NCBI GenBank assembly: GCA_050010755.1
Contig: JBEKKK010000001.1
Span: forward strand, 1,024,001-1,088,000
Length of the DNA stretch: 64,000 bases
Source: Candidatus Bathyarchaeia archaeon
GTDB lineage: Archaea > Thermoproteota > Bathyarchaeia > Bathyarchaeales > Bathycorpusculaceae
Direction: 5' to 3'
The translations under genes were made by a program, and so were the position numbers. Numbering within the stretch: the first letter of the stretch is position 1; every line of letters starts with the position of its first letter. Below are positions 25,222-55,025 of this stretch, one piece after another. A model generated the notes under the pieces. That model ran no database searches. It was given only the letters and a program-made list of their open reading frames with translations, and was not told the origin of the DNA.

Positions 25222-26940
25222 ATGACGACTGAGTCTGTTACGAACGTGAAAAGAAAACTGCCGCCATGCCGTTATGCGTGTCCAGCACACGTCAACGTTC
25301 AAGCATACGTTTCTCTTATTCAAAGAGGAAAGTACAAGGAAGCTGTTGACATAATTCGAAACGACATGCCCTTCCCAGCAATCTGCGGAAGAGTGTGCTT
25401 CAGCCCATGCGAGGATGCATGTGCAAGAACTGATGTCGACCAGGCTGTGGCCATACGCGCATTAAAGAAGTTTGTAGCAGACATTGAACGCCAACAGAGG
25501 AAGGTCAAACCCAAACCAATACCCAAGAGACATCCAGAGAAAGTCGCGATCATCGGAGCAGGTCCCGCAGGCCTAACCGCGGCATACGAACTCGCGAAAC
25601 TCGGTTATCCCGTAACAGTCTATGAACGCATGGCCGAGCCAGGAGGCATGATGCGCTACTGCATACCCGATTTCCGCCTTGAAAAATTCGTCGTCGAAAA
25701 CGAAGCAAACTACATCAAAGACTTGGGCGTGGAAATCAGAACAGGCGTAGAATTTGGAAAGGACATCACGATTGAGAGTCTGCAGAAGGAAGGCTACAGG
25801 GCTGTTTTTCTGGCCATCGGCACCCAGAAAGGCATGATGCTTAATGTTCCGGGTGAAGACCTGAAAGGCGTAGTGAACGCCGTTGACTTCCTAAGGGACA
25901 TGGCCCTCGGAAAACACGTTGAAATCGGGCAAAAAGTAGCCGTTGTCGGTGGGGGAAACAGCGCGATAGACGCTGCCAGAACAGCCAAAAGAATGGGCGC
26001 AAAAGAAGTCACCCTTCTCTACAGACGTTCCCGAGAGGAAATGCCCGCCCTACCAAGCGAAGTGGAAGAAGCCGAAAAAGACGGCGTCAAAATAGAAATT
26101 CTAGTCGCACCCAAACAGATCATCGGGCAAAACGGCAAAGTCGAAGCCCTCGAATGCTTGCGAATGAAGCTGGGTGAACCCGACGAAAGCGGCAGGAGGC
26201 GTCCAGTGCCAATAGCCGGTTCTGAACACAAATACGAGGTGGACATGGTCATTCCAGCCCTGGGTCAGTTGGCAGAAGCCGCGTGTATTCCAAAGCCCTT
26301 ACAGGATGAAAAAGCAAGGATTCCAACAGTTGCCACGGATCCATTAACGCTCGAGACCAGGGTTCCAGGGGTCTTCGCTGGTGGTGACATAGCCACTGGG
26401 CCGGCAAGTATAATCGAAGCCGTGGGGCAGGGAAAACGGGCAGCCGCGTCAATTCACCTTCACCTTAGCGGACAAGACGTGCACAAGGACCGAGAGGAAA
26501 ACTTCGAAGAGGCAACATGGGCTAAGGATCTGAAGCAGATAAAGAAGAAAGAGCGTCGGTACAATCCGCTTCCAGAGAAATCCCGCACCACTTTCGAAGA
26601 AGTGCAAGACTACGTGGAAAAGCTGGAGAGAGATGCCAAGTTTGAAGCTTGCCGTTGCTTGGGTTGCGGGCCTTGCGCAGAATGTCTCGGAACCACAGAA
26701 TTGTGCGAAGGTGACAAAGCTGCCGTGGACGAAGCTCTCTGCATAGGCTGCAACGTGTGCGCCATCGTCTGTCCATTCGGAGCGGTTGAAAAGGACGAGA
26801 ACAACATCGCGCGAATAAACGAGGATCTTTGCAAGGGATGCGGACTCTGTGCCGCAAGATGCCCAGTGAGGGCGATAACGATGAAGAAAATAACCAACGA
26901 GCGCATACTAAACTTTGCCATACCAACCCTTAAGGAGTAG
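25222..26940 (+). CDS. GltD/NfnB/SudA-like NAD(P)H Fe-S flavoprotein with C-terminal 2x[4Fe-4S] domain
   Basis: PCxxACP, CGRVCxxPCExxC, GAGPAG, GGGNSA, YRRS, CIGCNVC and CKGCGLC. Confidence 0.9.
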   Translation: MTTESVTNVKRKLPPCRYACPAHVNVQAYVSLIQRGKYKEAVDIIRNDMPFPAICGRVCFSPCEDACARTDVDQAVAIRALKKFVADIERQQRKVKPKPIPKRHPEKVAIIGAGPAGLTAAYELAKLGYPVTVYERMAEPGGMMRYCIPDFRLEKFVVENEANYIKDLGVEIRTGVEFGKDITIESLQKEGYRAVFLAIGTQKGMMLNVPGEDLKGVVNAVDFLRDMALGKHVEIGQKVAVVGGGNSAIDAARTAKRMGAKEVTLLYRRSREEMPALPSEVEEAEKDGVKIEILVAPKQIIGQNGKVEALECLRMKLGEPDESGRRRPVPIAGSEHKYEVDMVIPALGQLAEAACIPKPLQDEKARIPTVATDPLTLETRVPGVFAGGDIATGPASIIEAVGQGKRAAASIHLHLSGQDVHKDREENFEEATWAKDLKQIKKKERRYNPLPEKSRTTFEEVQDYVEKLERDAKFEACRCLGCGPCAECLGTTELCEGDKAAVDEALCIGCNVCAIVCPFGAVEKDENNIARINEDLCKGCGLCAARCPVRAITMKKITNERILNFAIPTLKE

Positions 26941-26946
26941 ATATGA

Positions 26947-27702
26947 ATGACGGATAAAGAACCCAGAATTGTTTGTTTGATGTGTAACTTCGCCTTCTGC
27001 AGCAGCGAAAACCCAGTGCCATCTAACTTCAACGTGGGACGCGTAAACTGCATCGGAGAAATAGACCCGACGGTTGTTCTAGAAATATTCGAGAAAGGCG
27101 CCGATGCTGTGATGCTGGCAGGATGCAAACCGCCAGACTGTCACTTCGTTGAAGGTAACCTGCAGGCAGAACGCGCCGTAAGAATGATGAAGAAGCTTTT
27201 GGCATTGACAGGCTTGGAGCCTGAACGTCTAAACCTGCTCTGGTACTCGCCCTTTGAAGAAACGAGTTTCACGCCTTCAGCGAAAGAGTTCTCCAAGGAA
27301 ATAGAGAAACTGGGAACTTCCCCGCTGAAAAATGCAGGGCGTGAATCTATGCTTATGGTGAACCTCCTTGCTGCCAAGAACGCTGCCGGCGAGTTTCGCC
27401 TGAGAGTCCTGCTTGGCAGGGAGAAGGAACTCACCGAGGGCGTGAACGTTTACGGTGACAGACTCACACCTGAGGAATTCGACACATTGATGGATGACGT
27501 TGTTGAAGACGAATTCATCAGGTACAAGATTCACGTTCTCACAAGAACCAAGCCGCTTTCAGTCAAGGCCTTGGCGGAAGTAACCGAAATGAAGCCAGCG
27601 GCGGTTCTCAAGCAGATTGTTAACATGCGCAGAAAAAACATGATAGCTCTAGACAGCATTGAAGGAACGACACCTCTCTACAAAGCTTTGGAGATTGAAT
27701 AG
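26947..27702 (+). CDS. MvhD-like [2Fe-2S] subunit with long C-terminal extension (putative winged helix)
   Basis: MCN, RVNCIG, GAD...AGCKPPDCHF; tail LSVKALAE...VLKQIVNMRRKNMI. Confidence 0.82.
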   Translation: MTDKEPRIVCLMCNFAFCSSENPVPSNFNVGRVNCIGEIDPTVVLEIFEKGADAVMLAGCKPPDCHFVEGNLQAERAVRMMKKLLALTGLEPERLNLLWYSPFEETSFTPSAKEFSKEIEKLGTSPLKNAGRESMLMVNLLAAKNAAGEFRLRVLLGREKELTEGVNVYGDRLTPEEFDTLMDDVVEDEFIRYKIHVLTRTKPLSVKALAEVTEMKPAAVLKQIVNMRRKNMIALDSIEGTTPLYKALEIE

Positions 27703-27703
27703 A

Positions 27704-30700
27704 ATGAAAAACCAAAAAATCGGAGCAGTAATGGTGGTCGGCGGAGGAGTCGCTGGCATACAAGCATCCTTGGATCTAGCCGATTCTGGATTCAAAGTGT
27801 ATCTTGTTGACAAAGGACCAAGCATAGGCGGGGTGATGGCTCAGCTCGACAAGACGTTTCCAACAAACGACTGTTCAATGTGCATCTTGTCACCCAAGCT
27901 TGTTGCAACTGGAAGACACCCGAACATCACGATTCTGACGAACGCAGATATCATGGGATTGAACGGTGAAGCTGGAAACTTCGAAGTAAAGATTCGAAAA
28001 AACAGCCGTTACATAATCGAAGACAAGTGCAACGGCTGCGGCATCTGCGCGCAGAAGTGTCCAATCGAAGCCGTTGACACGTTTAACGAAGGCCTAGCGA
28101 AGAGAGGCGCTGTCTACGTGGAGTATCCACAGGCAGTCCCGCTGAAGTACAAGATTGACCGCGAAAAATGCATAGGATGCGGAACGTGCTACGAAATCTG
28201 CAAAGCAAGAGCAATTGAGTACGACCAGAAAGAGACCGAGACAACCCTGAAAGTTGGCTCAATAATCCTCGCTCCCGGATTCGAACCCTTCGACGCAACG
28301 CTCAAAACCGAGTACGGCTACGGACGCTTCCAAAACGTGGTCACAAGCCTCGAATTCGAGCGAATCCTTAGCGCCTCCGGCCCGTACGGCGGACTCGTCA
28401 TAAGACCATCAGACGGTGAAATACCGAAAAGAGTAGCCTTTATCCAATGCGTCGGCTCAAGAGACTATCAACTCGGAAACAACTACTGTTCCGCGGCATG
28501 TTGCATGTACGGCATAAAAGAAGCCGTCATAGCAAAAGAGCACACACCCATCCAAATTGACGCGTCAATCTTTTACATGGACATGCGTTCGTACGGAAAA
28601 GAGTTCGACGCGTACCGCAACCGCGCCGAGGAAGAGTACGGCATAAGATTCACGAGATCACGCGTCGCCGGAGTCACTGAAGACCCGTTGACGGGTAACC
28701 CCTTCGTCCATTACGTCCAAGACGAAACCCCAAAGACGGAAGAGTTCGACATGGTTGTGCTGGCAATAGGCATGCAACCCCCGAAAGGCGTTAAAGAACT
28801 GGCCAAAAACCTGGGAATCAAGCTCAACAAGTACAACTTCTGCGCAACACAAACTTTCTCTCCGATGGACACTTCGAAACCCGGCATCTACGTCTGTGGT
28901 GCTTTCTCAGCACCGAAAGACATACCTGAAAGCGTAGCCCAAGCAAGCGGCGCGGCGGCAAGAGCCATGGGAATAATCGCAGACGCAAGAGGAACACAGG
29001 TTGTAGCAAGGGTGTATCCTGCTGAAAGAGACGTGAGCAAAGAAGAGCCTCGCATCGGAGTCTTCGTCTGCCACTGCGGAATCAACATAGGCGGAGTCGT
29101 GAATGTACCACAAGTCGTGGAATACGCAAAGACCTTGCCAAATGTGGCCTACGCAGAAGCAAACGTTTACACTTGCTCACAGGACACTCAGAAGCTCATG
29201 TGCGAAGAAATCAAGCAGAACAAACTGAACCGGGTTATAGTTGCTTCGTGCACACCGAGGACGCATGAGCCGCTCTTCAAAGAAACAGTCCGGGAAGCTG
29301 GATTGAACCCGTACTTGTTTGAGATGACGAACATCCGAGACCAGTGCAGCTGGGTGCATATGCACGAACCGAAAGAAGCTACGGAAAAAGCCAAAGACCT
29401 CATCAGGTCGATAGTTGCCAAAACAGCACTCTTGAAACCCTTGAAGAAACCGGTGATAAGCGTCACCCAAGTGGGTCTCATAATAGGAGGCGGCGTCTCT
29501 GGTATGACGGCAGCTTTGGAGCTTGCAAAACAGGGTTTCGAAGTGCATTTGATTGAAAAAGAAAAGGAATTGGGTGGTCATCTTCTCACGATGTACTCTC
29601 TACTTGGAGAGAAAGGCGATCCGAAAGAAAAAGTAAATGCCATCGTCGACGAAGTCATGAAGAATGACAAGATACACGTCTACACCGAAGCAGAAGTTGC
29701 CGAGGTCCACGGTTTCGTGGGAAACTTCAAGTCAAAAATCCACCAACAGAACGGTAGCGAAAAGGAAATTCAGCACGGCATAGTGATAGTCGCCACTGGT
29801 GCGGTAGAATACAGACCCACGGAGTACTTCTATGACAAAGACCCGAGAGTCGTGACACAACATGAGCTGGAAGAAGACCTTGCAAAAGGAGAATTCAACG
29901 CCAAAAACGTGGTCATGGTCCAATGTATCGGGGCAAGGACAAAAGAGCGACCCAACTGCTCAAGAATATGCTGTGGACAAGCCATCAAGAACGCTTTGAA
30001 AATCAAGGAAGTAAGCCCGCAGACCGAAGTGTACGTGTTATTCAAGGACATCAGATCCTACGGGTTCAAAGAAGACTACTACCGTGACGCTGCAATGAAA
30101 GGGGTCACGTTCATAAACTATGGCGATGAACGCAAGCCGGAACTCACCAAGGAGGGAAACAAACTCAAAATGGCCTTCTGGGAACCCGTGCTGAAGCAAC
30201 AACTCGATATTGAGCCTGATCTAGTGGTTTTGAGTGTGGCAACGATTCCGAACCCTGGGAACAAGCATATAGCCGAACTTCTCAAGGTGCCGCTGACAAA
30301 GGATGGCTCATTCTTGGAAGCACACATGAAACTCCGCCCAGTGGATTTCGCAACCGACGGCGTTTTCCTGTGCGGAATGGCTCATTCGCCAAAGTACATC
30401 GAAGAAAGCATCGCACAAGCGTGTGCAGCTGCTTCGAGGGCCGCAACAATACTCTCCAAAAGCACGCTCGAGATGGAAGGAATTATCGCGAACGTTGACG
30501 AAGATTTATGTAGTGCCTGTAGGGTCTGTGAGTATTTGTGTCCGTACAGTGCAGTCGAAATTAAGGACAAGGATGGAAAATCAATCGCACACGTGATTGA
30601 AGCCTTGTGCAAGGGCTGCGGCGCCTGTGGGACTGCCTGTCCGACCAAAGCTATTACGATGGGACACTTTACCACGCAGGAAATACTTGCCCAGGTCAAA

Positions 30701-30724
30701 GCAGCTTTAGTGGAGGCGGAATGA
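27704..30724 (+). CDS. hdrA: Heterodisulfide reductase subunit A, tandem-duplicated (two FAD modules)
   Basis: GGGVAG, LDKTFPTNDC, QCVGSR..CSAACC, internal VCHCG, second GGGVSG, QCIGAR..CSRICC, HMKLRPVD, terminal ferredoxin motifs. Confidence 0.93.
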   Translation: MKNQKIGAVMVVGGGVAGIQASLDLADSGFKVYLVDKGPSIGGVMAQLDKTFPTNDCSMCILSPKLVATGRHPNITILTNADIMGLNGEAGNFEVKIRKNSRYIIEDKCNGCGICAQKCPIEAVDTFNEGLAKRGAVYVEYPQAVPLKYKIDREKCIGCGTCYEICKARAIEYDQKETETTLKVGSIILAPGFEPFDATLKTEYGYGRFQNVVTSLEFERILSASGPYGGLVIRPSDGEIPKRVAFIQCVGSRDYQLGNNYCSAACCMYGIKEAVIAKEHTPIQIDASIFYMDMRSYGKEFDAYRNRAEEEYGIRFTRSRVAGVTEDPLTGNPFVHYVQDETPKTEEFDMVVLAIGMQPPKGVKELAKNLGIKLNKYNFCATQTFSPMDTSKPGIYVCGAFSAPKDIPESVAQASGAAARAMGIIADARGTQVVARVYPAERDVSKEEPRIGVFVCHCGINIGGVVNVPQVVEYAKTLPNVAYAEANVYTCSQDTQKLMCEEIKQNKLNRVIVASCTPRTHEPLFKETVREAGLNPYLFEMTNIRDQCSWVHMHEPKEATEKAKDLIRSIVAKTALLKPLKKPVISVTQVGLIIGGGVSGMTAALELAKQGFEVHLIEKEKELGGHLLTMYSLLGEKGDPKEKVNAIVDEVMKNDKIHVYTEAEVAEVHGFVGNFKSKIHQQNGSEKEIQHGIVIVATGAVEYRPTEYFYDKDPRVVTQHELEEDLAKGEFNAKNVVMVQCIGARTKERPNCSRICCGQAIKNALKIKEVSPQTEVYVLFKDIRSYGFKEDYYRDAAMKGVTFINYGDERKPELTKEGNKLKMAFWEPVLKQQLDIEPDLVVLSVATIPNPGNKHIAELLKVPLTKDGSFLEAHMKLRPVDFATDGVFLCGMAHSPKYIEESIAQACAAASRAATILSKSTLEMEGIIANVDEDLCSACRVCEYLCPYSAVEIKDKDGKSIAHVIEALCKGCGACGTACPTKAITMGHFTTQEILAQVKAALVEAE

Positions 30725-31164
30725 TGAGCAAGAACGACGGGTTTGAACCGAAAATAATAGGTTTTCTGTGCAACTGGTGCAGTTACGCAGGCGCAGACTT
30801 GGCCGGTGTGAGCAGAATCCAGTACCCCCCGAACATCAGAATCATACGCGTGATGTGCAGCGGCAGGATAGACCCAGCGTTCGTGCTTGAAGCCTTCAAA
30901 GACGGCGCCGACGGAGTGCTGGTTGCTGGTTGTCACTTGCCGTCTGACTGTCACTACATTAGCGGTAATTTCAAGGCTATGAGAAGGATAAACCTGTTGA
31001 AGAGAGTCTTGAAAGATTTCGGGATAGAACCTGAACGTTTGCGGCTGGAATGGATCTCGGCGAGTGAGGGAGACAAATGGGCAGCTGTGGTCAAAAGCAT
31101 GGTGGAGGACCTGAAGAAGCTCGGTCCGAGCCAAGTGCAGGATATGGAAGCTGAAGTCGAATGA
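30721..31164 (+). CDS. mvhD: F420-non-reducing hydrogenase subunit D
   Basis: FLCNWCSYAGAD, RVMCSGR, GCH..DCHY, WISASEG. Confidence 0.95.
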   Translation: MMSKNDGFEPKIIGFLCNWCSYAGADLAGVSRIQYPPNIRIIRVMCSGRIDPAFVLEAFKDGADGVLVAGCHLPSDCHYISGNFKAMRRINLLKRVLKDFGIEPERLRLEWISASEGDKWAAVVKSMVEDLKKLGPSQVQDMEAEVE

Positions 31165-31688
31165 CGGAAACCGCCGGTGAAAAGCCGATAAAGGCTTCAG
31201 AAATCGATCCCAAGTTTAAGTATGAGATATCGAAGATGCACGGCGGAGAAAAACTGATGCGCTGCTTCCAGTGTGGAACATGCACATCAGACTGTCCGGT
31301 TGCGAGGTTCAGCGAGACCTACAGGCCCAGACAGATAATACGCATGGCACAGCTCGGTCTCAGAGACAGAGTGCTGAACAGCGACACTCTGTGGCTTTGC
31401 GCAGCCTGCTTCACGTGCACAGACCGGTGTCCACAAGATGTTGAGGTTGCCAGTGTGATACGTGTTCTGAGAAACTTGGCAGCTGAGAAGGGCATCGTTC
31501 CTCAAATGTTCAAAGAGGAAGCATCAAGCATACTCGAGTCAGGCTACGCCTACCGAATTCCCGAGTTAAGGCTAAAGAAGAGAGAAACCCTGGGCCTGCC
31601 GCCGCTACCGAAGGGGAACCCCGGAAGCATAGGAAAAACGCTTCGGGAAATAAAGTTTCTTAAGTGCGTCGAAAAGAAGGGAAGCTAG
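31161..31688 (+). CDS. hdrC: Heterodisulfide reductase subunit C
   Basis: CFQCGTCTSDCP; WLCAACFTCTDRCP. Confidence 0.93.
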   Translation: MTETAGEKPIKASEIDPKFKYEISKMHGGEKLMRCFQCGTCTSDCPVARFSETYRPRQIIRMAQLGLRDRVLNSDTLWLCAACFTCTDRCPQDVEVASVIRVLRNLAAEKGIVPQMFKEEASSILESGYAYRIPELRLKKRETLGLPPLPKGNPGSIGKTLREIKFLKCVEKKGS

Positions 31689-31689
31689 G

Positions 31690-32580
31690 ATGGCCGAACA
31701 CAAGTATCTCCTGTTTCTGGGATGCGCAATTCCCTACCGTGTAGCCGCGTACGAGATCTCGGCGCGCAAAATCCTGCAGAGACTCGGCGTGGAAATAGTT
31801 GAGATGCCCGAGTTCAACTGTTGCGGGCTTCCGTTAGATCCTGTGAGCCACGAAACGATGCTCATTCTGGCAGCCAGAAATCTTGCAATAGCGGAGCAGA
31901 AAGGATTGGATATCGTGGCCTTGTGCCCAGGCTGTGCTGGGACTTTGAAGAAAGTCAGCAAGATGTTGAAAGAAGATAAGCACATGTGTGAAGAGATAAA
32001 CGGCCATTTGAAGGAAGCTGGATTGGAGTTCAAGGGAAACGTTACAGCAAAGCACTTGTTGCAGGTGCTGATTGAAGACGTAGGGTTGGAGAAGATAAAA
32101 GAAATGGTCGTCAGGCCGCTTACAAACGTGAAAGTTGCTGAACACAACGGTTGCCACATTTTGAGGCCAAAGGAATATATCGGTTTTGATGATCCTGAGG
32201 ATCCGAAAACACTCAAGACCTTGATTGAAGCGACTGGGGCAACATGTTTGGATTACTTGGATGAGATAGAATGCTGCGGTGCTCCAAGCGTTGGCGTGAA
32301 CGATAAGGTCGCTCTACAGCTCGCAAGGGACAAGTTGAACCACATCAAGACTGTGGATGCGCAGGCGTTGATAACCATATGCCCGTTCTGTCACATCATG
32401 TACGACACGAACGAGTTGCGCATCGAAAAAATGTTCAACGAGGTTTACGGTATTCCAATCCTGCATTACCCTCAACTACTGGGTTTGGCAATGGGGATGT
32501 CGCCTGAAGAACTGGCTTTCAATGAACTTCGCGTTAACTGTTCAAAAATATTGGGACAAGTGTGTGAGGGTGGAAAGTAA
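31690..32580 (+). CDS. hdrB: Heterodisulfide reductase subunit B
   Basis: Two CCG domains: FLGC..NCCG..CPGC; GCH..ECCG..CPFC. Confidence 0.93.
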   Translation: MAEHKYLLFLGCAIPYRVAAYEISARKILQRLGVEIVEMPEFNCCGLPLDPVSHETMLILAARNLAIAEQKGLDIVALCPGCAGTLKKVSKMLKEDKHMCEEINGHLKEAGLEFKGNVTAKHLLQVLIEDVGLEKIKEMVVRPLTNVKVAEHNGCHILRPKEYIGFDDPEDPKTLKTLIEATGATCLDYLDEIECCGAPSVGVNDKVALQLARDKLNHIKTVDAQALITICPFCHIMYDTNELRIEKMFNEVYGIPILHYPQLLGLAMGMSPEELAFNELRVNCSKILGQVCEGGK

Positions 32581-33561
32581 ATGAGCGAAAAACTGAAACT
32601 GGGTTTCTACTGGGCTGCAAGCTGTGGCGGGTGCGAAATCGCGGTGCTGGACATAAACGAGAAAATACTGGACGTAGTGAAAATCGCGGACATAGTGTTT
32701 TGGCCTGTTGCTATAGACGTCAAGTACAAAGACGTTGAAGCCATGCCCGACAAGTACATAGACATATGCTTCTTCAACGGGTCAATCAGGACCGGGGAAC
32801 AGGAACACATGGCCAAACTCCTCAGACAAAAATCCAAGACGCTCGTGGCGTTCGGCTCCTGCGCCCAAGAAGGATGCATACCGGGCCTAGCGAACCTTCA
32901 TGACCGAAAAGAAATCTTTGACAAAGTCTATTTGGAAAGCAAATCCATCGCGAACCCGAAAAGAATCGTTCCCAAAACCGAGACTGAGGTAAAAGAAGGC
33001 GTGTTAAAGCTGCCGAAGTTCTACGATACGGTGAAAACCCTTGATCAGACCGTTGACGTTGACTACTACCTGCCTGGCTGCCCACCTCCTGTAAAGCTAA
33101 TAGCAACTGCCGTGGAAGCCATCGCAAATAATCAGCTACCACCAAAGGGCTCAGTGCTTGCACCATTAAAATCTGTCTGCGACGAATGCCCACGCAAGAA
33201 GGACAACAAGAAAATCTCAAAAATATATCGTGTCTACGAGAAGATACCGGAACCGGAGAAGTGCCTGCTCGAACAAGGCATAATATGCATGGGACCAGCA
33301 ACTCGTAGCGGCTGCGGTGCTCAATGCCTCACCGTTGACATGCCCTGCACAGGATGTGGTGGACCCTGCCCAAACTCTCCAGAACAGGGAGCAGCAATGA
33401 TGAGCGCAGTAGCTTCGATACTTGGGCTTGAAGGCGAGACGGAGCATTACAGTCAGGAGGATGTTGACAACTTGATGAATCAGATCAAAGATCCTCTTGG
33501 AACATTCTACATGTACTCTTTGCCATCGTCTATTCTTAGAAGGAAAGTGATGGAAAAATGA
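32581..33561 (+). CDS. mvhG: Group 3c [NiFe]-hydrogenase small subunit
   Basis: CGGC, FGSC, PGCPP, VCDEC, CMGPATRSGC, PCTGCGG. Confidence 0.92.
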   Translation: MSEKLKLGFYWAASCGGCEIAVLDINEKILDVVKIADIVFWPVAIDVKYKDVEAMPDKYIDICFFNGSIRTGEQEHMAKLLRQKSKTLVAFGSCAQEGCIPGLANLHDRKEIFDKVYLESKSIANPKRIVPKTETEVKEGVLKLPKFYDTVKTLDQTVDVDYYLPGCPPPVKLIATAVEAIANNQLPPKGSVLAPLKSVCDECPRKKDNKKISKIYRVYEKIPEPEKCLLEQGIICMGPATRSGCGAQCLTVDMPCTGCGGPCPNSPEQGAAMMSAVASILGLEGETEHYSQEDVDNLMNQIKDPLGTFYMYSLPSSILRRKVMEK

Positions 33562-35012: not shown

Positions 35013-35060
35013 AACCTTTTTCTTTCCTTCCTCTTTCTTATAGTCTGTTGGCGATTTCTA

Positions 35061-35558: not shown

Positions 35559-35682
35559 GTTCAACGGTTTCGAACGGCGTATGGGTACAACTTCGATCGC
35601 GCACGGCAACGGTATGTTCCCACAAGGTTCCTGCTTAAAACTTATATTTAGGGTCGGGTATCGAGTTCGATGTGTGATTATC

Positions 35683-37488: not shown

Positions 37489-37502
37489 TTTCTCTTCCTC
37501 CG

Positions 37503-44815: not shown

Positions 44816-44941
44816 GGATAATGATATTTTGGTATTGTTTAAAAACGTTTGCAACCGTGCTATTCTTGCGGACCCTTAAACGTGCGTCTAGAAACTCTTT
44901 ATAGCATGTTCAAACATGCTTTCTAGCATCGCTGGAAAGGG

Positions 44942-45358: not shown

Positions 45359-45371
45359 CGGCGGGCCCTGG

Positions 45372-46166
45372 GTGTCAGCAGATATAGGCCTTGAAAAGCT
45401 CCAAGAGAGTTTGCACACCAAACGTTTCGGAAGACGTGTCTTTTTCAGTCGCAAAGTCAAATCGACGAACGATTGGGCCAAGAAACTCGCCAAAATGGGC
45501 GCAGAAGAAGGAACCGTCACAGTGGCCGAGACTCAGACCGCTGGAAGAGGAAGACTGGGGAGAGAATGGGCTTCGCCCAGAGGAGGATTGTGGTTCTCAA
45601 TAGTCCTACAGCCCAAGAAGAAAGTCCAGGAGACGGCAAAGCTGGTGTTCGTGGCCAGCTTCACTGTGGCTGAAGTTTTGCGGCGGGAGTACGACCTGAG
45701 AACCGAGACAAAGTGGCCTAATGATGTGCTAGTGGACGGCAAGAAGATATGTGGGATACTGGCTGAGATGAGCACCAAAGCCGAAAAGGTCAACTTCGTT
45801 ATCCTGGGCATCGGAGTGAACGCAAACTTTCGTGCAGATGATGCTTTGCCAGAATCGGTGAAGACGCATGCAACTTCAATCGAGACGGAGGTTGGCAAAA
45901 AGATCCGCTTGGAAAGTCTGCTCAAGGAGTTGCTTGAGAAGATGGAGACTGTTTATGGCGGGTATCTAGATCGCGGCTTTGCTCCATTGCTGGAACAGTG
46001 GAAAAAGTATGCCGAATTCCTAGGCCGGAAAGTGGTTATTGCGAATCAAGAGGAAACGTTGAACGGGTTGGCTTTGGACGTTGATCTTGACGGTGCGCTA
46101 ATCCTGAAGCTTGACGACGGAGCAAGGAAACGAGTTTTCGTGGGGGACCTTCTCTTCGCGCGTTAG
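45372..46166 (+). CDS. birA: Biotin-protein ligase (no HTH)
   Basis: STND, QTAGRGRLGREW, KWPND, KICGIL, GIGVN. Confidence 0.93.
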   Translation: MSADIGLEKLQESLHTKRFGRRVFFSRKVKSTNDWAKKLAKMGAEEGTVTVAETQTAGRGRLGREWASPRGGLWFSIVLQPKKKVQETAKLVFVASFTVAEVLRREYDLRTETKWPNDVLVDGKKICGILAEMSTKAEKVNFVILGIGVNANFRADDALPESVKTHATSIETEVGKKIRLESLLKELLEKMETVYGGYLDRGFAPLLEQWKKYAEFLGRKVVIANQEETLNGLALDVDLDGALILKLDDGARKRVFVGDLLFAR

Positions 46167-47520: not shown

Positions 47521-48133
47521 AAGCGCGCGCTGGCGCATTGAATAATTCGAGTAAGTGTTGAATGAACTTTTTTGTTGAAAATGACGTGAAGTGGCAAAGG
47601 ATGTCAACGTGATCTGCTGCGTGATGACTGCAACCGTCTCCTCGCCTCCCAAGCGCTGTCCGATGAGTTTGAAGAGGTTTGAGCAGGCTGGAGCGCAATC
47701 TAGGTAAGGTCATTATTTCGCGTTTTTACAATCGTGGAACGGAATAATCCTCTTCGGTCTGGACGGGGGCGATTTGTGCAGTGTGTTTACATGTCGTTAT
47801 GAGTGAGTTTTGAGTCTGAACAGAGCCTGTTTGGAGCTTTATTCGTAAAACACAGTCTCCGTTCAGCTTAGTTCTGAAAAAATTTTTTTTCTCGGATCAA
47901 AATCCCGCGTCCAAACTCAACGTTACCTTTCTCAGTATCCAAAACAAGGCGCTCCCAAATTATGTAACTAGCCTGCGCGCGTTATCTGTTGACAATCTTA
48001 CTTGCACTGATGCCGGCTATTCTCAGAATCATATTCCTTTACATTGAGCGTGCTGTAATAACCAAACTATTCCACGTGTTGTGTCTAAATACTTAATAGG
48101 ACAATGTTACAGCAAAAATTGAGGGAATTTCAT

Positions 48134-49702
48134 TTGGCCACGTCGAAGGAACCTTCAGTCGAGGAGAAGATCAAGAAACTAAAGAGCATGAGGGAGCAGG
48201 CTGGCCTAGGTGGTGGGCAGAAACGAATTGAGGAGCAGCATGCAAAAGGCAAGCTGACGGCTAGAGAGCGCATTAACCTCTTACTCGATGAAGGCAGTTT
48301 CAACGAGATTGACCAGTTTGTCGTTCACCAATGCACCGAATTTGGAGTGTCTGACCGTAAGTTTCTCGGGGACGGCGTAGTCACGGGTTATGGCACGATA
48401 GACGGCAGACTCGTCTACGTCTTCTCGCAGGATTTCACGGTTTTCGGAGGATCGCTCGGCGAGATGTTTGCGAAGAAAGTGTGCAAGCTCATGGATTTAG
48501 CTTTGAAAACAGGTGCACCCGTAATCGGTTTGAATGATTCTGGCGGTGCCAGGATTCAGGAGGGTGTGGCGAGCCTGGCGGGTTACGGTGACATCTTCTT
48601 CAGAAATGTGATAAGCTCAGGAGTTGTGCCGCAGATTTCAGCTGTTTTAGGACCCTGCGCTGGCGGAGCTGTTTATTCGCCGGCCTTGACCGACTTCATA
48701 ATCATGGTGGACAAGACAAGCCACATGTTCATAACAGGCCCAGACGTTGTTAAAACGGTGCTGGGGCAAGAGGTGTCTTTCGAGGATCTTGGCGGAGCCA
48801 TGATACACAGTCAAACAAGCGGCGTTGCCCACTTCATCGCAAAAGACGAAGAACAGTGCATACAAATCGTAAAGAAGATTTTGAGCTACTTGCCCAGCAA
48901 CTACTTGGAGGATCCGCCTATCGTCGAGACCGGCGACGACCCGAACCGCACTGATGAAGGCTTGGCCAAAGTGCTGCCAGAAGATCCTGACAAGCCCTAC
49001 AACACGAAAGATATCATCGTTCGAGTGGTCGATAACGGCGAATTCTTTGAAATTCAGCCCCTGTGGGCGCAGAACATCGTAATCGGCTTCGCGCGGTTGA
49101 ACGGGAAATCGATAGGGATAGTGGCTAACCAGCCGACGCACTATGCTGGAGCGTTAGACATTAACAGTTCGATGAAGGCAGGCAGGTTCGTCCGTTTCTG
49201 CGACGCCTTTAACATTCCGATAGTGACGTTCGTGGATGTGCCCGGTTTCTTGCCAGGCATGGAACAGGAACACGGCGGGATAATCAAGCACGGCTCCAAG
49301 CTGCTATACGCCTATTGCGAAGCCACAGTGCCGAAAGTGACGGTCATCATCAGAAAAGATTACGGTGGAGCTTACGACGTCATGGGAAGCAAACATTCGG
49401 GCGCAGACATCAACTATGCGTGGCCAACGGCTGAGATCGCCGTCATGGGTCCACATGGCGCCATCAACATAATCTTCAGAAAGGAAATCTCTGAAGCCAA
49501 AGACCCTCAGGAAAAACACAACGAGCTTGTCGCTGAGTACCGCCAGAAATTCGCAAGTCCCTACATCGCCGCCCAGAAAGGATACATAGACGAGGTCATC
49601 GAACCCTCCGAGACCCGGCCGAAGCTCATTAGCGCCCTCGAAAGCCTGGCTACAAAACGCGAAACTCGCCCAGCCAAAAAACACTCCAACGTGCCATTAT
49701 GA
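48134..49702 (+). CDS. Acyl-CoA carboxyltransferase (PccB/MmdA/transcarboxylase 12S-like)
   Basis: [56 protein letters not shown]. Confidence 0.93.
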
Positions 49703-49852: not shown

Positions 49853-51226
49853 ATGAGCGAGTCCGCTGGGCAAGGGTTGTTTTCTGGCAACTGGTCTCGA
49901 AATTACGGTTTGCTTTTGGCAATCGTGTTTCTTGCGAATTTTGCGAGTTCGATGGTTTCGGGTTCAGCCGTGTTTTTTCTGGTCAAGTCTTTGGCAGTGA
50001 CTCCTGAGGCTACGACGGAATTCATTGGAGTTTTGATTTCCGTGAGCAGTCTAGCTCTGATTTCAGGGAGTTTTGCTGGAGGTTTTCTCGCGGATAGAGT
50101 CGGTAAGAAGCTGACGATTGGTTTGGCCTGCGTGGTCCTCGCCCCAAGCTTGTTTTTCTATTCGGTCGTCAACAGCGTGTTCCTGGTCGTGATCGGATAT
50201 TTCGCGCAGATGTTTGCGATGGCCTTGTTTCAGCCGGCTTTCACTGCTTTCGTGGCTGATTTGAGCAGGTTGAGTTCGAGGGGGAGAGCTTTCGGCGGTT
50301 TCAACTTGTTTTGGATGATTAGTACGGTTCCGGCGCCTTTGATAGGTGGAATATTGGTTGACCGTGTGGGGCTGCGTTTTCCTTTCATGATTGGCTCTGC
50401 GGTGGCCGTTGCAGGTTTGGTAGCTTCTTTCGGGCTTGTGAACCTCTCTGGCAGGGTTGTTCCCCTGGGCGAAGTTTCGGACGGTCAGGTTGCTGAAAAG
50501 GCTCCGATGCCATTGGCCAAGGTTCTGTGGCTTTTCGGGGCAATCTCTCTTTTCACGGGCTTGGCTAACGGGTTGGGTGGACCTTTGCTCAGAGATTTTC
50601 CAATATACAAGTTGGGTGTAGATGCCACACAGTTGGGCCTGATATTCTCATTGGGTTCAGGTTTGGCGACCGCGCTAGTTCAGGTTCCTGGCGGATTCTT
50701 GACGGACAGGTTCGGCCGGAAGCCACTGATGCTCATAAGCTTGCTGGGAGCGCCTTTTGTCGTTGGTTTGGCATTCACTGGGTCACTCTCCCAATTTATC
50801 CTCGTCTGCGTGGGTTTGTTTGCTTTTGGCAACCTCGGTTCTCCAGCGTATCAGGCCTGGCTGATGGAGCTTGTTCACGACGCGCGGAGAGCGAGAGTTT
50901 GGGGATTAATGAACGCGATTATGGGTGCGGGATCGTTTTTTGGGCCTTTCCTCGCCACTTGGCTCTTCCAGACTCAAGCGTGGGTCGCCGTCCCGTTTAT
51001 AGTGGCGGCTGTTCCATGGGTCGTGCAAGTTCCGCCCATCTTGAAACTGGCAGAGACCAAAAAAAGGGAAAAGCCGTCTCCTCACAGTCCACCTATACGC
51101 TTTCGGGTGCGCAGCGTTCCTCATGTTCTAAAGGTGTTTAAACGAGCCATCAGAATGTTCCAACAGAACCACCAGAAATTAATAGGGCTTCGCCGCATTT
51201 TTGCACGTTTGAGGCAAGAGAGTTAA
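49853..51226 (+). CDS. MFS transporter
   Basis: GGFLADRVGKK and GGFLTDRFGRK; about 12 TM helices. Confidence 0.88.
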   Translation: MSESAGQGLFSGNWSRNYGLLLAIVFLANFASSMVSGSAVFFLVKSLAVTPEATTEFIGVLISVSSLALISGSFAGGFLADRVGKKLTIGLACVVLAPSLFFYSVVNSVFLVVIGYFAQMFAMALFQPAFTAFVADLSRLSSRGRAFGGFNLFWMISTVPAPLIGGILVDRVGLRFPFMIGSAVAVAGLVASFGLVNLSGRVVPLGEVSDGQVAEKAPMPLAKVLWLFGAISLFTGLANGLGGPLLRDFPIYKLGVDATQLGLIFSLGSGLATALVQVPGGFLTDRFGRKPLMLISLLGAPFVVGLAFTGSLSQFILVCVGLFAFGNLGSPAYQAWLMELVHDARRARVWGLMNAIMGAGSFFGPFLATWLFQTQAWVAVPFIVAAVPWVVQVPPILKLAETKKREKPSPHSPPIRFRVRSVPHVLKVFKRAIRMFQQNHQKLIGLRRIFARLRQES

Positions 51227-51241: not shown

Positions 51242-52786
51242 TTGGCTTCGAAACCCGTCAAAATCACGGATACCACTTTTCGGGATGCGCACCAGAGCCT
51301 ACTCGCCACCAGAATGCGGACCGAGACAATGCTTCCAATAGCTGAGAAGATGGATAAAGTCGGTTTCTTCTCGCTGGAGGCCTGGGGCGGGGCGACGTTC
51401 GACGTTTCAATTCGTTTTCTAAACGAGGATCCTTGGGAACGTATCCGAGAGCTGAAGCGGCACGTTAGACGGACACCGCTGCAGATGCTTCTGCGGGGAC
51501 AGAACGTGGTCGGCTATCGCAACTACCCGGACGACGTAGTTATAAAGTTCGTCGAAAAAGCCGCTGAGAACGGTGTCGACATTTTCAGGATATTCGACGC
51601 GTTGAACGACATTAGAAACATGGAAGTCGCAATCAAAACAGTCAAGAAGGTCGGGAAGCACGCGCAGGGGACAATCAGTTACACCATAAGCCCAGTCCAC
51701 ACTGTCGGACATTTCGTGGAATTTGCGAAGCAGCTCGCAGCGTTGCATTGTGACTCTATCTGCATAAAGGACATGGCTGGCATGCTCGCACCGCAGCCCG
51801 CGTACGACTTGATCAGGGCTCTGAAGAAAGAAGTGGAGTTGCCAGTGCATTTGCACACTCATAGCACCAGCGGAATGGCGATGATGACCTATCTACGCTC
51901 TTGCGAGGCGGGTGTCGACATCTTAGACACAGCATTCTCTCCCTTGGCATGGGGCACGTCTCAGCCGCCTGTGGAGTCCGTCGTCGCGGGGCTCAGGGGA
52001 ACGCCATATGACACGGGTCTGAACAGCGAGCTTCTGGACGAAATTGCACAATATTTCAGAGAACTGCGCGAAAAGTACTATGATCCATTGAAGCTCATCG
52101 ACCCGAAGGCTGAAAGAGTTGATGCCTCGATAATCGTTCATCAGATTCCTGGTGGAATGTTTTCCAACCTGTTGGAGCAGCTTCGCGAGCAGAAAGCACT
52201 TGACCGGCTGAACGAGGTTCTCGAAGAAGTGCCTAAGGTCAGAAAGGAGCTAGGATATCCACCTCTTGTGACGCCTACCAGTCAGCTGGTGGGAATACAG
52301 GCCGTCCTAAACGTTATTTCAGGAAAACGGTACAGCATCGTTCCGAATGAAATAAAGGACTATGTTCGAGGCCTCTATGGAAAACCCCCGGGGCCGATAG
52401 ACCCAAAAATCAAGAAGAAAATCATCGGCGACGAGGAACCCATAACAGGCCGCCCAGCCGACAAGCTGAAACCAGCACTGGACAAGATACCAGAAGATGT
52501 TAAGCCTTATCTGGAGACTGAAGAGGACAAGATTACCTACGCACTTTTCCCTCAGACGGCCTTAGAATTCTTCAAAAAGAGAAAAGCCAGGCACCAGGAG
52601 ACGAAACCGGCAATCGCGCCTGAAAGGCTTGCTGAACTCGAAGAAGTTGCCGCACTATCAGCCACACTTGCTACCGTCACTACATACAGTTCGGGCATCC
52701 AAGCACTTGTCCAGCACCGCCCCAAGGGGACGATATCACCATGGGTTCTTGCAGGCCGCCAGAGCATGACAGAAAGAGGCGGCTAG
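51242..52786 (+). CDS. Pyruvate/oxaloacetate carboxyltransferase (OadA/PycB/transcarboxylase 5S-like), no biotinyl domain, epsilon-like tail
   Basis: RDAHQSLLATR, WGGATFD, QMLLRGQN, IKDMAG, HTH, HQIPGGM, VTPTSQ. Confidence 0.92.
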   Translation: MASKPVKITDTTFRDAHQSLLATRMRTETMLPIAEKMDKVGFFSLEAWGGATFDVSIRFLNEDPWERIRELKRHVRRTPLQMLLRGQNVVGYRNYPDDVVIKFVEKAAENGVDIFRIFDALNDIRNMEVAIKTVKKVGKHAQGTISYTISPVHTVGHFVEFAKQLAALHCDSICIKDMAGMLAPQPAYDLIRALKKEVELPVHLHTHSTSGMAMMTYLRSCEAGVDILDTAFSPLAWGTSQPPVESVVAGLRGTPYDTGLNSELLDEIAQYFRELREKYYDPLKLIDPKAERVDASIIVHQIPGGMFSNLLEQLREQKALDRLNEVLEEVPKVRKELGYPPLVTPTSQLVGIQAVLNVISGKRYSIVPNEIKDYVRGLYGKPPGPIDPKIKKKIIGDEEPITGRPADKLKPALDKIPEDVKPYLETEEDKITYALFPQTALEFFKKRKARHQETKPAIAPERLAELEEVAALSATLATVTTYSSGIQALVQHRPKGTISPWVLAGRQSMTERGG

Positions 52787-52788
52787 AA

Positions 52789-53346
52789 TTGCCTACCTAC
52801 GAAGCCACCATAAACGGCAAACAAAGAAAAATCGAACTGAACAGAACCTCGCCAAACTCTTTCACAGCCAAGGTGGATGGCAAACTGCGGCAAATCAAAC
52901 TTCAAAGAGACGGAATCACTTCGGAAGAAGCCTCTGTCATAGAAATAGACGGCAAAACCTACAAAGTTGAACTGTCCAAAACCGAGCCGGGAAAGAAGAT
53001 TCCTGTCAAAGTGGAGGAAGCCAAGTTTGAAGTGGAAGTCCAGACTGCAAAGAGGGGACAGGCGTTTACGAGTTTCGAACCGACACTTCAAGTTGCCGCG
53101 AAAAAAACGGGAACGATGAGGAAGGCTGGTGTCGAGGGTGCGGTGACCGCTCCCATGACTGGCAGGATAGTTAAGGTCAAGGTGAGGAAGGGCGACCAAA
53201 TTAAGGCGGGCCAGGTTCTGTGCGTGGTTGAAGCGATGAAGATGGAGAATGAGATCTCGGCTCCCCGAGCTGGGACGGTTCAAGAGGTAAATGTTGCCGA
53301 TGGAACGCCTGTGAACGAAGGGGAAACGCTCTTCGTAATAGGTTAG
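52789..53346 (+). CDS. Biotin carboxyl carrier protein (1.3S-like)
   Basis: APMTG...[10 protein letters not shown]. Confidence 0.93.
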
Positions 53347-55025
53347 AAAATGGAAGGCGGTTTGTACTCGCCGAACACTTCTCGCAAGGTTCGGCAGATC
53401 TCGCCCAACGTTGCATACTCCTTCACGGCTTCGAAGATGAGCGGCATTAGGTTCACGTTTTCCTGTTCAGCTGCCCCACGGAGCTTGTGCAAGCTTTCCC
53501 TGGTTTTGGCTTCGTCTCTTCGCTGCTTGACCATTTTCAACTGTTCGACAAGTCTCTTCTCGATGGCTGGGTCTAGCTGTAACAGTTTCATCGGAACCTG
53601 TTCTTCGCTCAGAAAGTCGTTAACGCCTATCACGGTTCGCTTCTTGGTTTCAACGTCCTTCTGGAAACTGTAAGCGCTTTCCGTGATTTCCCGCTGCATG
53701 AAACCCTTCTCGATGGCTGCAACTGCTCCGCCCATGCCGTCGATGTGTTCAATGTATTTCTGTGCTCTCTCCTCAATCTCGTTCGTGAGGGACTCCAAGT
53801 AGTACGCGCCTCCCAAGGGATCAGCAGTTTCCGTCACTCCACTCTCGTGGGCGATTATCTGCTGCGTCCTAAGGGCAACGGTGACTGCCTGTTCGCTCGG
53901 CAATGCGTAGGCTTCGTCGAAGGAGTTCGTGTGCAGAGACTGTGTCCCCCCAAACACGGCTGACAACGCCTGCAGCGCCACTCGGACGATGTTGTTGTAG
54001 GGTTGTTGAGCGGTGAGTGAAACACCGGAAGTCTGAGTGTGGAACCGTAGCATCCAGGAGTTCGCATTCTTGGCTCCGAAGCGTTCCCTCATGATTCGCG
54101 CCCACAGACGCCTCGCAGCTCTGAACTTTGCAATTTCCTCAAGGAAGTTGCTGTGTGCTGCGAAGAAGAATGACAACCTGCCTGCGAACTTATCCAAGTC
54201 CAGTCCTCTGTCGATCGCGGCCTGAACATACGCGATGCCGTTGGCGAGTGTGAACGCGATTTCCTGAACTGCCGTGGAACCGGCTTCTCGGATGTGGTAT
54301 CCGCTTATGCTGATGGTGTTCCATTGGGGCATGTTTCGGCTGCAATACTCGAAAATGTCTGTTACCATGCGCATCGAAGGCTTGGGCGGGAAAATGTACA
54401 TGCCTCTAGCGACGTATTCCTTCAGAACGTCATTTTGCACGGTCCCCCCAAGCTTGGGTTGCTCGACACCCTGCTTTTGCCCCACGACGGCGTACATTGC
54501 GAGCAGAACGTTTGCCGGAGCGTTAATGGTCATGGAAGTGGTGACCTTGTCGAGGGGAATTCCGTCAAATAAGACTTCCATATCTCGTAGCGTGCTTGCG
54601 CTGACTCCCACTTTACCTACTTCGCCGAGGGCCATTTGATCGTCACAGTCGTAGCCGACTTGCGTTGGAAAGTCGAACGCCACGCTTAAGCCTGTTTGGC
54701 CGTGGCCGAGCAGGTATTTGAAGCGTTGGTTCGTCTGCTCTGCAGTTCCGAAGCCCGCGTACTGGCGCATGGTCCAATATCTCGCTCGGTACATCGTTGG
54801 ATAAACGCCGCGGGTGAAGGGAAAATCTCCTGGAAAACCCAAATCAAGCAGGTAATCGACGTTTTTGGTTTCGATGGGAGTGTAAACTCGGCTGACTGGA
54901 ATATGGGAAGTTGTTGAAAACTCGCCTCTCTCTGGAAGCTTGTCGAAGCTTTTCAGGACTGTCTCTGCTTCCCATTTTTGCTTGTGCTGAACGATTTCAT
55001 CAAGCTTTTGCTTGTCAGATGGCAA
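53343..55025 (-). CDS. Methylmalonyl-CoA mutase, substrate-binding (large) subunit
   Basis: [10 protein letters not shown] (Tyr), [12 protein letters not shown] (Arg), [18 protein letters not shown]; no B12-binding domain; start TTG 55025 with GGTG upstream. Confidence 0.92.

Follow-up and report, generated by a model that had tools for sequence, protein, structure and literature searches.

Parts of the gene array described here have counterparts in several known systems. The array lies in a 64,000-nucleotide stretch of a Candidatus Bathyarchaeia genome (assembly GCA_050010755.1, contig JBEKKK010000001.1, positions 1,024,001 to 1,088,000; hereafter the window), in which genes for an MvhADG-HdrABC hydrogenase-heterodisulfide reductase complex, a thiol:fumarate reductase-type enzyme (TfrAB) and a set of methylmalonyl-CoA enzymes occur in one neighbourhood. 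The thiol:fumarate reductase (TFR) of Methanothermobacter, reportedly described by Heim et al. in 1998, resembles the TfrAB of the window in being a soluble enzyme of two subunits, one SdhA-like and the other joining an SdhB-like part to a double CCG domain, with no membrane anchor; the TfrB family model is matched here from end to end. Unlike the methanogen enzyme, the proteins of the window score below the cut-offs of the TfrA and TfrB models, their host has neither mcrA nor ComA, and their genes stand beside methylmalonyl-CoA genes and a gene for an aldehyde:ferredoxin oxidoreductase (AOR). The MvhADG-HdrABC complex of methanogens likewise has six subunit types, encoded here in one operon together with a HycI protease; the bathyarchaeal operon differs in its extra GltD/NfnB-like flavoprotein, its second MvhD, its tandem HdrA, the equivalog cut-offs that it misses, and a host without methyl-coenzyme M reductase (MCR). 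The Wood-Werkman cycle of propionibacteria, as generally understood, also combines 12S, 5S and 1.3S subunits with a mutase and an epimerase, and a further resemblance is that no biotin carboxylase was found in the genus studied here. In propionibacteria, however, fumarate reduction is membrane-bound and linked to menaquinone, whereas here it would be soluble and of the CCG type, and the 5S protein has its best scores as a PycB/OadA-like protein.

Comparable neighbourhoods have been published for bacteria. According to the passages of PMC8542988 that concern it, a cluster in Candidatus Celaenobacter (Cloacimonadota) encodes TFR, 2-oxoglutarate:ferredoxin oxidoreductase (OGOR), fumarase, succinyl-CoA synthetase (SCS), Mvh and Hdr, and is read as functionally linked in an H2-driven reverse tricarboxylic acid (TCA) cycle. 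The host of the window shares with that organism, as those passages present it, the lack of methanogenesis and the close grouping of TFR with a group 3c Mvh and Hdr. It differs in being an archaeon and in having transcarboxylase, mutase, epimerase and AOR where the bacterium has a reverse TCA cycle with ATP-citrate lyase (ACL) and OGOR. In tubeworm symbionts and Thioflavicoccus, tfrAB is interspersed with flxABCD-hdrABC, and the relevant part of PMC6315080 proposes that electrons pass from Flx-Hdr to TfrAB. There too, an Hdr-type bifurcating complex outside the methanogens is proposed as the donor of TfrAB, but in sulfur-oxidising Gammaproteobacteria with NADH-linked Flx and a reverse TCA cycle, as far as that account goes, and not with an Mvh hydrogenase. 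The core idea of an Mvh-Hdr-TFR connection is already in print for bacteria in these two sources, to the extent that their cited passages cover it. The novelty lies in three points: the host belongs to the Archaea, the cluster is tied to transcarboxylase, mutase, epimerase and AOR where the bacterial ones have enzymes of the reverse TCA cycle, and co-occurrence data are added. Our literature search found no paper on such a cluster in Bathyarchaeia, although supplementary gene tables may mention it.

The assembly that contains the window comprises 2.19 Mb in 8 contigs and is 93.5% complete; the genes of the window were called from a listing of open reading frames (ORFs) and Pfam and NCBIfam scans of the window (Table 1). 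It consists of three conserved modules: the Mvh/HdrABC operon, a convergent tfrA-tfrB-aor-ferredoxin unit, and a biotin/B12 block that diverges from tfrA. The explanation that we favour overall, at a probability of roughly one half, is that these modules meet in a soluble CCG-type fumarate reductase that operates in a methylmalonyl-CoA route and receives its electrons from an Hdr-type module. The cooperation of the fumarate reductase with a Wood-Werkman-like methylmalonyl-CoA route is the part that the predicted proteins and their distribution support; the neighbourhood of the genes hints, more weakly, at a thiol cycle between Hdr/Mvh and Tfr.

An earlier note, drawn up from this DNA alone, had proposed an MCR-independent thiol cycle of this kind, and every gene that it named was recovered in the window by Pfam and NCBIfam. 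This holds for the complete MvhADG-HdrABC set, which is accompanied by a HycI protease gene, for the 12S/5S/1.3S-like enzymes, mutase and epimerase, and for the pair of SdhA and SdhB-CCG proteins without anchors, which has the TfrAB architecture and for which the Sdh_cyt search found no SdhCD-type anchor elsewhere in the genome. The independence from MCR agrees with the absence of mcrA and ComA from all 41 genomes compared. Malate dehydrogenase (Mdh), SucCD and the B12-binding subunit of the mutase, which the note had placed outside the window, were all found elsewhere in the genome; fumarase, the remaining member of that list, was absent from the assembly though present in most of the relatives.

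By its domain architecture, TfrAB is an SdhAB pair of the soluble type, with no anchor, and its iron-sulfur subunit closes with a double CCG domain like that of HdrB or HdrD. TfrB combines an N-terminal half similar to SdhB with a ferredoxin-like domain and two CCG domains; it matches the TfrB model NF004898 over residues 7-520 (318.9 bits, under the cut-off of 385) and has Cys at nine of the ten HdrB cysteine positions. Its CCG half is closest in the PDB to an HdrD-type "iron-sulfur-binding reductase" chain (9ojn_A, 2.9e-48), and the CCG and ferredoxin parts show weak matches to chains 8rvv_B and 7bkb_C of the methanogen MvhADG-HdrABC. TfrA scores 874.5 against the cut-off of 826 of the general SdhA/FrdA subfamily NF004724, and 491.9 with the TfrA model, under its cut-off of 718. 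The genome gave no match to the Sdh_cyt anchor PF01127, and no membrane protein gene lies within the tfrA-tfrB-aor-ferredoxin unit. Of the two genes that follow tfrB, aor is separated from it by a 154-nt spacer and codes for one of eight AOR paralogues, and the genome contains two other AOR-ferredoxin pairs (BLASTP). The ferredoxin has 16 invariant or nearly invariant Cys residues in 19 orthologues. Prediction of a complex between TfrB and this 16-Cys ferredoxin, with two alignments, scored 0.00 and has no bearing either way.

The distribution of these genes was determined in 41 genomes of the order, this one included, without a tree; the relatives are not independent, so that the counts overstate the number of independent events. 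Full-length TfrB is present in 23 genomes, 5S in 23, the mutase large subunit in 24, and all three in 21. Exceptions are few: TfrB without 5S and mutase in G008 and G016, 5S and mutase without TfrB in G001 and G031 (both less than 80% complete), and the mutase alone in G032. Within the family of the window, 14 genomes have both TfrB and 5S, two TfrB only, one 5S only and eight neither; in the other families the numbers are seven, zero, one and eight, respectively. TfrAB is thus gained and lost together with the methylmalonyl-CoA block, which is the main new result.

An HdrD-like/HdrA-MvhD module has a distribution of the same kind. An HdrD-like paralogue of the C-terminal part of TfrB (38-44% identity, in frames of 369-444 aa) occurs in 22 of the 41 genomes, 20 of which are TfrB-positive. 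In this genome the HdrD-like gene (427 aa) and, in divergent orientation, a gene for an 813-aa fusion of HdrA and MvhD occupy positions 156333-159906 of contig C2. Some 6 kb from this pair there are NfnAB-like and thioredoxin-reductase-like genes.

Among public sequences, the nearest TfrB-bearing loci are 89-91% identical and are recorded as Candidatus Bathyarchaeia. The 57 closest TfrB loci comprise 52 with Bathyarchae* titles, two from Methanomethylicia (54% identity) and three short contigs titled as Acidobacteria-type bins. On short contigs titled Acidiferrales/Acidoferrum (L067, L074, L099), TfrAB is 73-82% identical to the Bathyarchaeia protein; these are probably mis-binned archaeal contigs. 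A protein-homologue search with TfrB gave, among the matches listed, close relatives only (74-96% identity) and no methanogen TfrB.

Gene order was compared in two sets of loci. In the first, 20 loci taken from relatives, tfrA-tfrB-aor-ferredoxin converges on hycI-mvhAG-hdrBC in 10, which represent eight genera of the window's family. Four loci, from three other families, have instead an hdrD-like gene (a ferredoxin domain plus two CCG domains) directly upstream of tfrA; a divergent hdrA with mvhD is present in three of them, and the contig of the fourth stops inside hdrA. The remaining six, mostly on short contigs, showed only tfrAB or tfrAB-aor-ferredoxin among the recognised genes. Synteny of tfrAB with Hdr-type modules, which the earlier note had suggested checking across relatives, is therefore seen in two different layouts. 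The second set consists of 55 TfrB-bearing loci of other genomes from a public genome collection, each feature being counted over the loci with enough flank for it. Where no less than 2.5 kb of sequence is available downstream, 32 of 42 loci have AOR after tfrB; with at least 4 kb, AOR and the ferredoxin follow in 31 of 38, and with at least 8 kb, mvh, hycI or hdrB is found within 10 kb in 16 of 27. On the upstream side, an epimerase gene or birA is present in 29 of the 41 loci that extend for 3 kb or more, and 12S in 17 of the 34 that extend for 7 kb or more; in many relatives the epimerase gene adjoins tfrA. Over these 55 loci the supercluster is a feature of the lineage and not a coincidence of one genome. 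The major facilitator (MFS) transporter gene between 12S and 5S, which may encode a carboxylate carrier, was seen at this position elsewhere only in L045 and L046, which belong to two of the closest relatives.

The methylmalonyl-CoA block was classified by its model scores. The 12S protein reaches 869 with TIGR01117 (mmdA), under the cut-off of 999. The 5S protein scores best with the PycB domain model NF006761 (790 vs a cut-off of 402), followed by the OadA model NF008985 (727.5 vs 718), and falls below the cut-off of the transcarboxylase model NF008984 (564 vs 827). Biotin carboxylase (PF02785) was found neither in this genome nor in any of the five genomes of the genus, and the Na+-pumping subunit OAD-beta (PF03977) had no match in this genome; 12S, 5S and 1.3S could then only transfer carboxyl groups here, and we infer from this gene content that they act as a transcarboxylase in this genus. 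Contig C3 encodes another mutase large subunit and, next to it, the small subunit that binds B12. In G001, a 77% complete genome of the same genus (L124-L125), many stops and frameshifts interrupt the genes for 12S, 5S, 1.3S and a copy of the mutase, whereas no such damage is apparent in the epimerase gene and birA; collinearity with the window breaks off shortly before the guaA/tfrAB position, and neither TfrB nor MvhA was found in that genome. This may be joint decay into pseudogenes or may stem from assembly error or incompleteness, and it was not counted as evidence.

In the explanation that we favour, TfrAB would reduce fumarate in a route to which the biotin/B12 block also belongs and which leads from pyruvate through oxaloacetate, malate, fumarate, succinate, succinyl-CoA and methylmalonyl-CoA to propionyl-CoA. 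The genes for the route would be those of TfrAB, Mdh, SucCD, the mutase small subunit and the biotin/B12 block, with a class I fumarase as found in relatives. Electrons would reach the CCG domain of TfrB from an Hdr-type module, either the Mvh-Hdr complex or the HdrD-like/HdrA-MvhD pair, by means of a thiol/disulfide other than coenzyme M (CoM) and coenzyme B (CoB) or by direct contact, with fumarate as the high-potential sink and concurrent reduction of ferredoxin. The organism can make use of such ferredoxin, since CdhC of the carbon monoxide dehydrogenase/acetyl-CoA synthase is present in the genome.

As to the carrier, none of the 41 genomes has mcrA, and none has ComA, the sole CoM marker searched (CoB markers were not searched). 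CoM-SH and CoB-SH are therefore unlikely donors for TfrAB, and without MCR there is no enzyme to make the heterodisulfide for Hdr. MqnA/D was likewise found in none of the 41 (the classical men pathway was not searched), which makes menaquinone of the futalosine pathway an unlikely donor as well. A lipoyl-protein was considered as the thiol carrier between Hdr and Tfr and was dropped, because the GcvH-like protein encoded first in the hdr operon lacks the lipoyl-lysine: it has ETWM where the second GcvH of the genome has the lysine-bearing ESVK. A protein with two thioredoxin folds, encoded 12 kb upstream of the hdr operon, is a conceivable candidate for a protein thiol.

Several observations weigh against the favoured explanation. 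Four genomes without TfrAB (G009, G013, G014 and G015) retain the ferredoxin-aor pair convergent with the mvh cluster, three of them with hdrCB as well, so that the neighbourhood may reflect AOR and not Tfr. In that case AOR may be what is tied to the surroundings of mvh, and tfrAB and the biotin/B12 block may be accessory genes inserted next to it. The persistence of the ferredoxin-aor pair in these genomes points to a possible connection of AOR with the hydrogenase complex. MvhA occurs in 36 of the 41 genomes (E <= 1e-20), in most relatives with or without TfrB, and being nearly ubiquitous it makes the co-occurrence of MvhA and TfrB say little; since MvhA and HdrBC are kept in relatives that lack TfrAB, Tfr cannot be their obligate disulfide-regenerating partner. 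The mvh/hdr genes and tfrAB are also convergent and thus form separate transcripts. At the level of the proteins, the equivalog models for TfrA, TfrB, HdrB, VhuA, 12S and the 5S transcarboxylase are all matched below their cut-offs, and TfrA has an RSHSVCAQGG motif at residue 79. We take this RSHS..A.GG motif to be the site of the covalent-FAD histidine, typical of enzymes able to oxidise succinate, so that oxidation of succinate is left possible. In G014, two AOR-ferredoxin pairs stand in tandem beside mvh/hdr.

Fumarase and the sources of C4 and C5 acids count on the same side. Searches of the assembly for the class I N-domain and the class II C-domain of fumarase found neither; Ldh_2 was not found in the genome, and its sole Lyase_1 member is PurB. 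Class I fumarase occurs in 35 of the 41 genomes, including three of the other four of the genus, and class II in four. The 14-kb fumarase region that three genomes of the genus share (G002, G003 and G004; L042-L044) has no collinear match here; either the gene fell into a gap of the assembly or the strain has lost it. Of the 41 genomes, 11 encode a biotin carboxylase, all of them 5S-positive, and its gene adjoins tfrA in four (G010, G012, G023 and G030); in the genera that have it, the enzymes are as likely to be ATP-dependent pyruvate or propionyl-CoA carboxylases as a transcarboxylase. Citrate synthase (PF00285) occurs in only four of the 41 genomes and in none of this genus, no ACL-type match was found in the genome, and two of its seven POR_N proteins are KorA-like, above the NF006412 cut-off. 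The rarity of citrate synthase together with the KorA-like genes makes an anabolic role of Tfr plausible.

Such a role is the first of the alternatives, a serious one with real support that we nonetheless consider somewhat unlikely. TfrAB would merely supply succinate for succinyl-CoA and 2-oxoglutarate in a reductive TCA branch, as in Methanothermobacter, while the methylmalonyl block would feed propionyl-CoA from the breakdown of amino acids or odd-chain compounds into succinyl-CoA, and Mvh/Hdr would be unrelated housekeeping. The two KorA-like alpha subunits and SucCD would suit this scheme, as would the biotin carboxylase beside tfrA in four relatives and the occurrence of Mvh/Hdr without TfrAB; the part of PMC8764690 that deals with Methanothermobacter gives TfrAB as the succinate source for 2-oxoglutarate there. 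Yet full-length TfrB was not found in 18 of the 41 genomes, most of which also lack citrate synthase, and TfrAB is therefore not the general route of the order to 2-oxoglutarate. In the genus of the window, the want of a biotin carboxylase means that the biotin enzymes give no net C4 synthesis, and the distribution of TfrAB follows 5S and the mutase instead of being universal.

The full thiol cycle of the earlier note is doubtful. It holds that a diffusible thiol pair shuttles between HdrB, which would use H2 and co-reduce ferredoxin, and TfrB, which would use fumarate, and that this is the main energy coupling. The fumarate/succinate couple (+33 mV) is a better acceptor than CoM-S-S-CoB, which counts in its favour. 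All the parts are present and neighbouring, and HdrB and TfrB both have CCG domains with their cysteines largely kept. The idea of fumarate as the disulfide-regenerating sink suffers from the separate, convergent operons, from the persistence of Mvh/Hdr without TfrAB, from the want of any candidate thiol in the searches made (ComA in none of the 41 genomes, a GcvH-like neighbour without the lipoyl-lysine) and from the missing fumarase of this assembly. The co-occurrence of tfrAB is tight with 5S and the mutase, whereas Mvh/Hdr is present with and without TfrAB. The bacterial analogues in the cited passages of PMC8542988 and PMC6315080 also speak for a cycle of this type.

A reversal of the route, in which propionate or succinate would be oxidised syntrophically, with TfrAB as a succinate dehydrogenase whose electrons, confurcated with those of reduced ferredoxin by Hdr/Mvh, would end in H2, is very unlikely. 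The motif in TfrA that we take for the covalent-FAD histidine site would fit it, and a set of the transcarboxylase type that lacks biotin carboxylase is also in use among syntrophic propionate oxidisers. It is, however, strongly endergonic to oxidise succinate with a low-potential disulfide as acceptor or with release of H2, the cluster includes no membrane-bound partner for reverse electron transport, and fumarase, which would be needed downstream, was not found in the assembly.

Still less do we expect TfrAB, AOR and the 16-Cys ferredoxin to form one soluble complex that would couple aldehyde oxidation or acid reduction to fumarate/succinate independently of Hdr. The tfrA-tfrB-aor-ferredoxin order is the tightest conserved adjacency, and the AOR-ferredoxin pair recurs as a two-gene unit, but that pair stays beside mvh/hdr in genomes without TfrAB, 154 nt lie between tfrB and aor, and other families have tfrAB but no AOR. 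Finally, a type-E-like quinol:fumarate reductase, in which the fused CCG domain would attach TfrAB to the membrane and accept quinol electrons, was rejected as extremely improbable on the MqnA/D result, which covers the futalosine pathway of menaquinone synthesis, and the absence of Sdh_cyt from the genome, even though CCG subunits serve in type E succinate:quinone reductases and the HdrB of the window matches the MFR anchor model SdhE (159 bits).

Table 1. Genes of the window with their positions (numbered from the first nucleotide of the window), strands and the family matches on which the assignments are based
Feature	Position	Strand	Basis
Protein with two thioredoxin-fold domains (protein disulfide oxidoreductase-like)	12588-13319	+	
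ADP-forming acyl-CoA synthetase (alpha and beta fused) with C-terminal GNAT, 933 aa	21473-24274	+	Pfam, TIGR02717
RHH + GcvH-like protein, head of hdr operon	24503-25093	+	Pfam GCV_H 8e-30, RHH_1 2.5e-4
GltD/NfnB-like NAD(P)-binding iron-sulfur flavoprotein, 578 aa	25204-26940	+	Pfam Fer4_20, Pyr_redox_2, Fer4
Second MvhD-like protein, C-terminal extension of ~130 aa	26947-27702	+	Pfam FlpD 4e-30, residues 19-123
HdrA, 1021 aa	27659-30724	+	Pfam Pyr_redox_2 (2 stretches), Fer4 (3 stretches)
MvhD	30607-31164	+	Pfam FlpD 5e-56
HdrC	31161-31688	+	Pfam Fer4_8, Fer4_17; placed between mvhD and hdrB
HdrB, two CCG domains	31690-32580	+	Pfam CCG x2
MvhG, [NiFe] hydrogenase small subunit	32581-33561	+	Pfam Oxidored_q6
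MvhA, [NiFe] hydrogenase large subunit	33558-35012	+	Pfam NiFeSe_Hases
HycI-type hydrogenase maturation protease	35061-35558	+	Pfam HycI
AsnA-type aspartate-ammonia ligase	35500-36813	+	
16-cysteine (4 x [4Fe-4S]) ferredoxin-like protein, paired with AOR	36979-37488	-	Pfam Fer4_11
Tungsten-type aldehyde:ferredoxin oxidoreductase (AOR family)	37503-39350	-	Pfam AFOR_N, AFOR_C
TfrB-type subunit, 521 aa	39505-41070	-	Pfam Fer2_3, Fer4_8, CCG x2
TfrA/SdhA-type flavoprotein	41084-42892	-	Pfam FAD_binding_2 4e-105, Succ_DH_flav_C 1e-43
guaA (both subunits)	between tfrA and the epimerase gene		
Methylmalonyl-CoA epimerase-type glyoxalase-fold protein	44942-45358	+	Pfam Glyoxalase_4
Biotin-protein ligase BirA	45303-46166	+	Pfam BPL_LplA_LipB, BPL_C
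12S-type carboxyltransferase (methylmalonyl-/propionyl-CoA side)	48104-49702	+	Pfam Carboxyl_trans 3e-205
MFS transporter, between 12S and 5S	49853-51226	+	Pfam MFS_1
5S-type carboxyltransferase (pyruvate/oxaloacetate side)	51242-52786	+	Pfam HMGL-like, PYC_OADA
1.3S-type biotin carboxyl carrier protein	52741-53346	+	Pfam Biotin_lipoyl; AMKM biotinyl motif
Methylmalonyl-CoA mutase large subunit	53343-55304	-	Pfam MM_CoA_mutase 3e-228; TIGR00641 800 bits

Two of the listed frames are probably too long at their start: the domain of MvhD begins at residue 50, which places its true start later than that of the ORF, and the family match of the mutase large subunit begins at about residue 130, with a true start near 55025.

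The genes for all six subunit types of the Mvh-Hdr complex are contiguous (mvhD, hdrA, hdrC, hdrB, mvhG and mvhA, 27659-35012), and the hydrogenase is group-3c-like. MvhA (442 bits with the VhuA model, under the cut-off of 800) was the sole large subunit of its type in a genome-wide BLASTP search, which returned only the self-match, whereas the paralogues counted in this way number eight for HdrA and three for HdrB. HdrB reaches 288.7 with TIGR03288, under the cut-off of 345. HdrA has a tandem form, with two flavin/NAD-binding modules and ferredoxin domains, and scores 1022 bits in three stretches with the HdrA2 model, under the cut-off of 1100. The GltD/NfnB-like flavoprotein just exceeds the cut-off of NF009410 (519 vs 516), and the second MvhD-like protein matches VhuD and the C-terminus of HdrA2 at 1.5e-23. 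Taken together, the tandem HdrA, the GltD/NfnB-like protein and the second MvhD suggest a putative NAD(P)H-linked branch on the Mvh-Hdr complex. Elsewhere in the genome (contig C2, 134395-139702), a KorA-like alpha gene comes after genes for a fused HdrA-MvhD protein and for a GltD-like protein similar to HdrC; the arrangement looks like another Hdr-type module, paired with a ferredoxin-dependent oxoacid enzyme.

Other genes of the region flank the hdr operon. The GcvH-like protein passes the cut-off of NF002270 by a single unit (118 vs 117); its gene is kept upstream of the gltD-like gene in relatives, one of which has it twice, and the protein may be a regulator rather than a carrier. The ADP-forming acyl-CoA synthetase that the earlier note had placed just upstream is indeed there, but it is not a plain enzyme: it is a fusion with an acetyltransferase of the GNAT type (Pfam CoA_binding_2, Succ_CoA_lig, Ligase_CoA_2, ATP-grasp_5 and Acetyltransf_1; TIGR02717 575.8 vs a cut-off of 567), an architecture that resembles the bacterial Pat lysine acetyltransferases. 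Its SHTGS stretch presumably marks the place of the catalytic histidine, and a homologue adjoins the mvh clusters of G008, G014 and G020. The AsnA-type gene, which sits between hycI and the ferredoxin gene, is kept in the genus and in one further locus.

Transcription of the region was considered in an RNA library labelled as a peat metagenome, in one run of which 7% of the sampled words were found. The RNA contigs give some depth in all 30 bins of 25200-45199, to which carry-over of DNA may contribute. Of 603 contig pieces, 30 are at least 99% alike, 139 are 95-99% and 434 are 90-95% alike; for the most part they derive from related populations, and, as they are contigs, expression can be neither ranked nor correlated from them.

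The Bathyarchaeia are often described as being among the most abundant archaea of anoxic sediments and peat, according to the portion of PMC10477458 concerned with their distribution. Many of them carry Mvh-Hdr without methanogenesis, and a soluble CCG-type fumarate reductase that is gained and lost as a unit with methylmalonyl-CoA enzymes offers a concrete and testable candidate for the acceptor of that complex. The broadest form of the proposal, that in MCR- and CoM-less Bathyarchaeia fumarate would be the physiological high-potential acceptor of Hdr-type bifurcation, which would feed reduced ferredoxin to the Wood-Ljungdahl pathway through the oxidation of H2 coupled to the formation of succinate and propionate, is one that we advance tentatively and regard as rather unlikely. 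Should the anabolic role of TfrAB be the right one instead, the locus would belong to ordinary central metabolism. If the broadest form of the proposal is true, these abundant archaea would be propionate producers, and the acceptor of Mvh-Hdr in archaea without methanogenesis would have one possible identity; the formation of succinate and propionate by archaea that the conserved block suggests would change models of carbon flow in methanogenic habitats.

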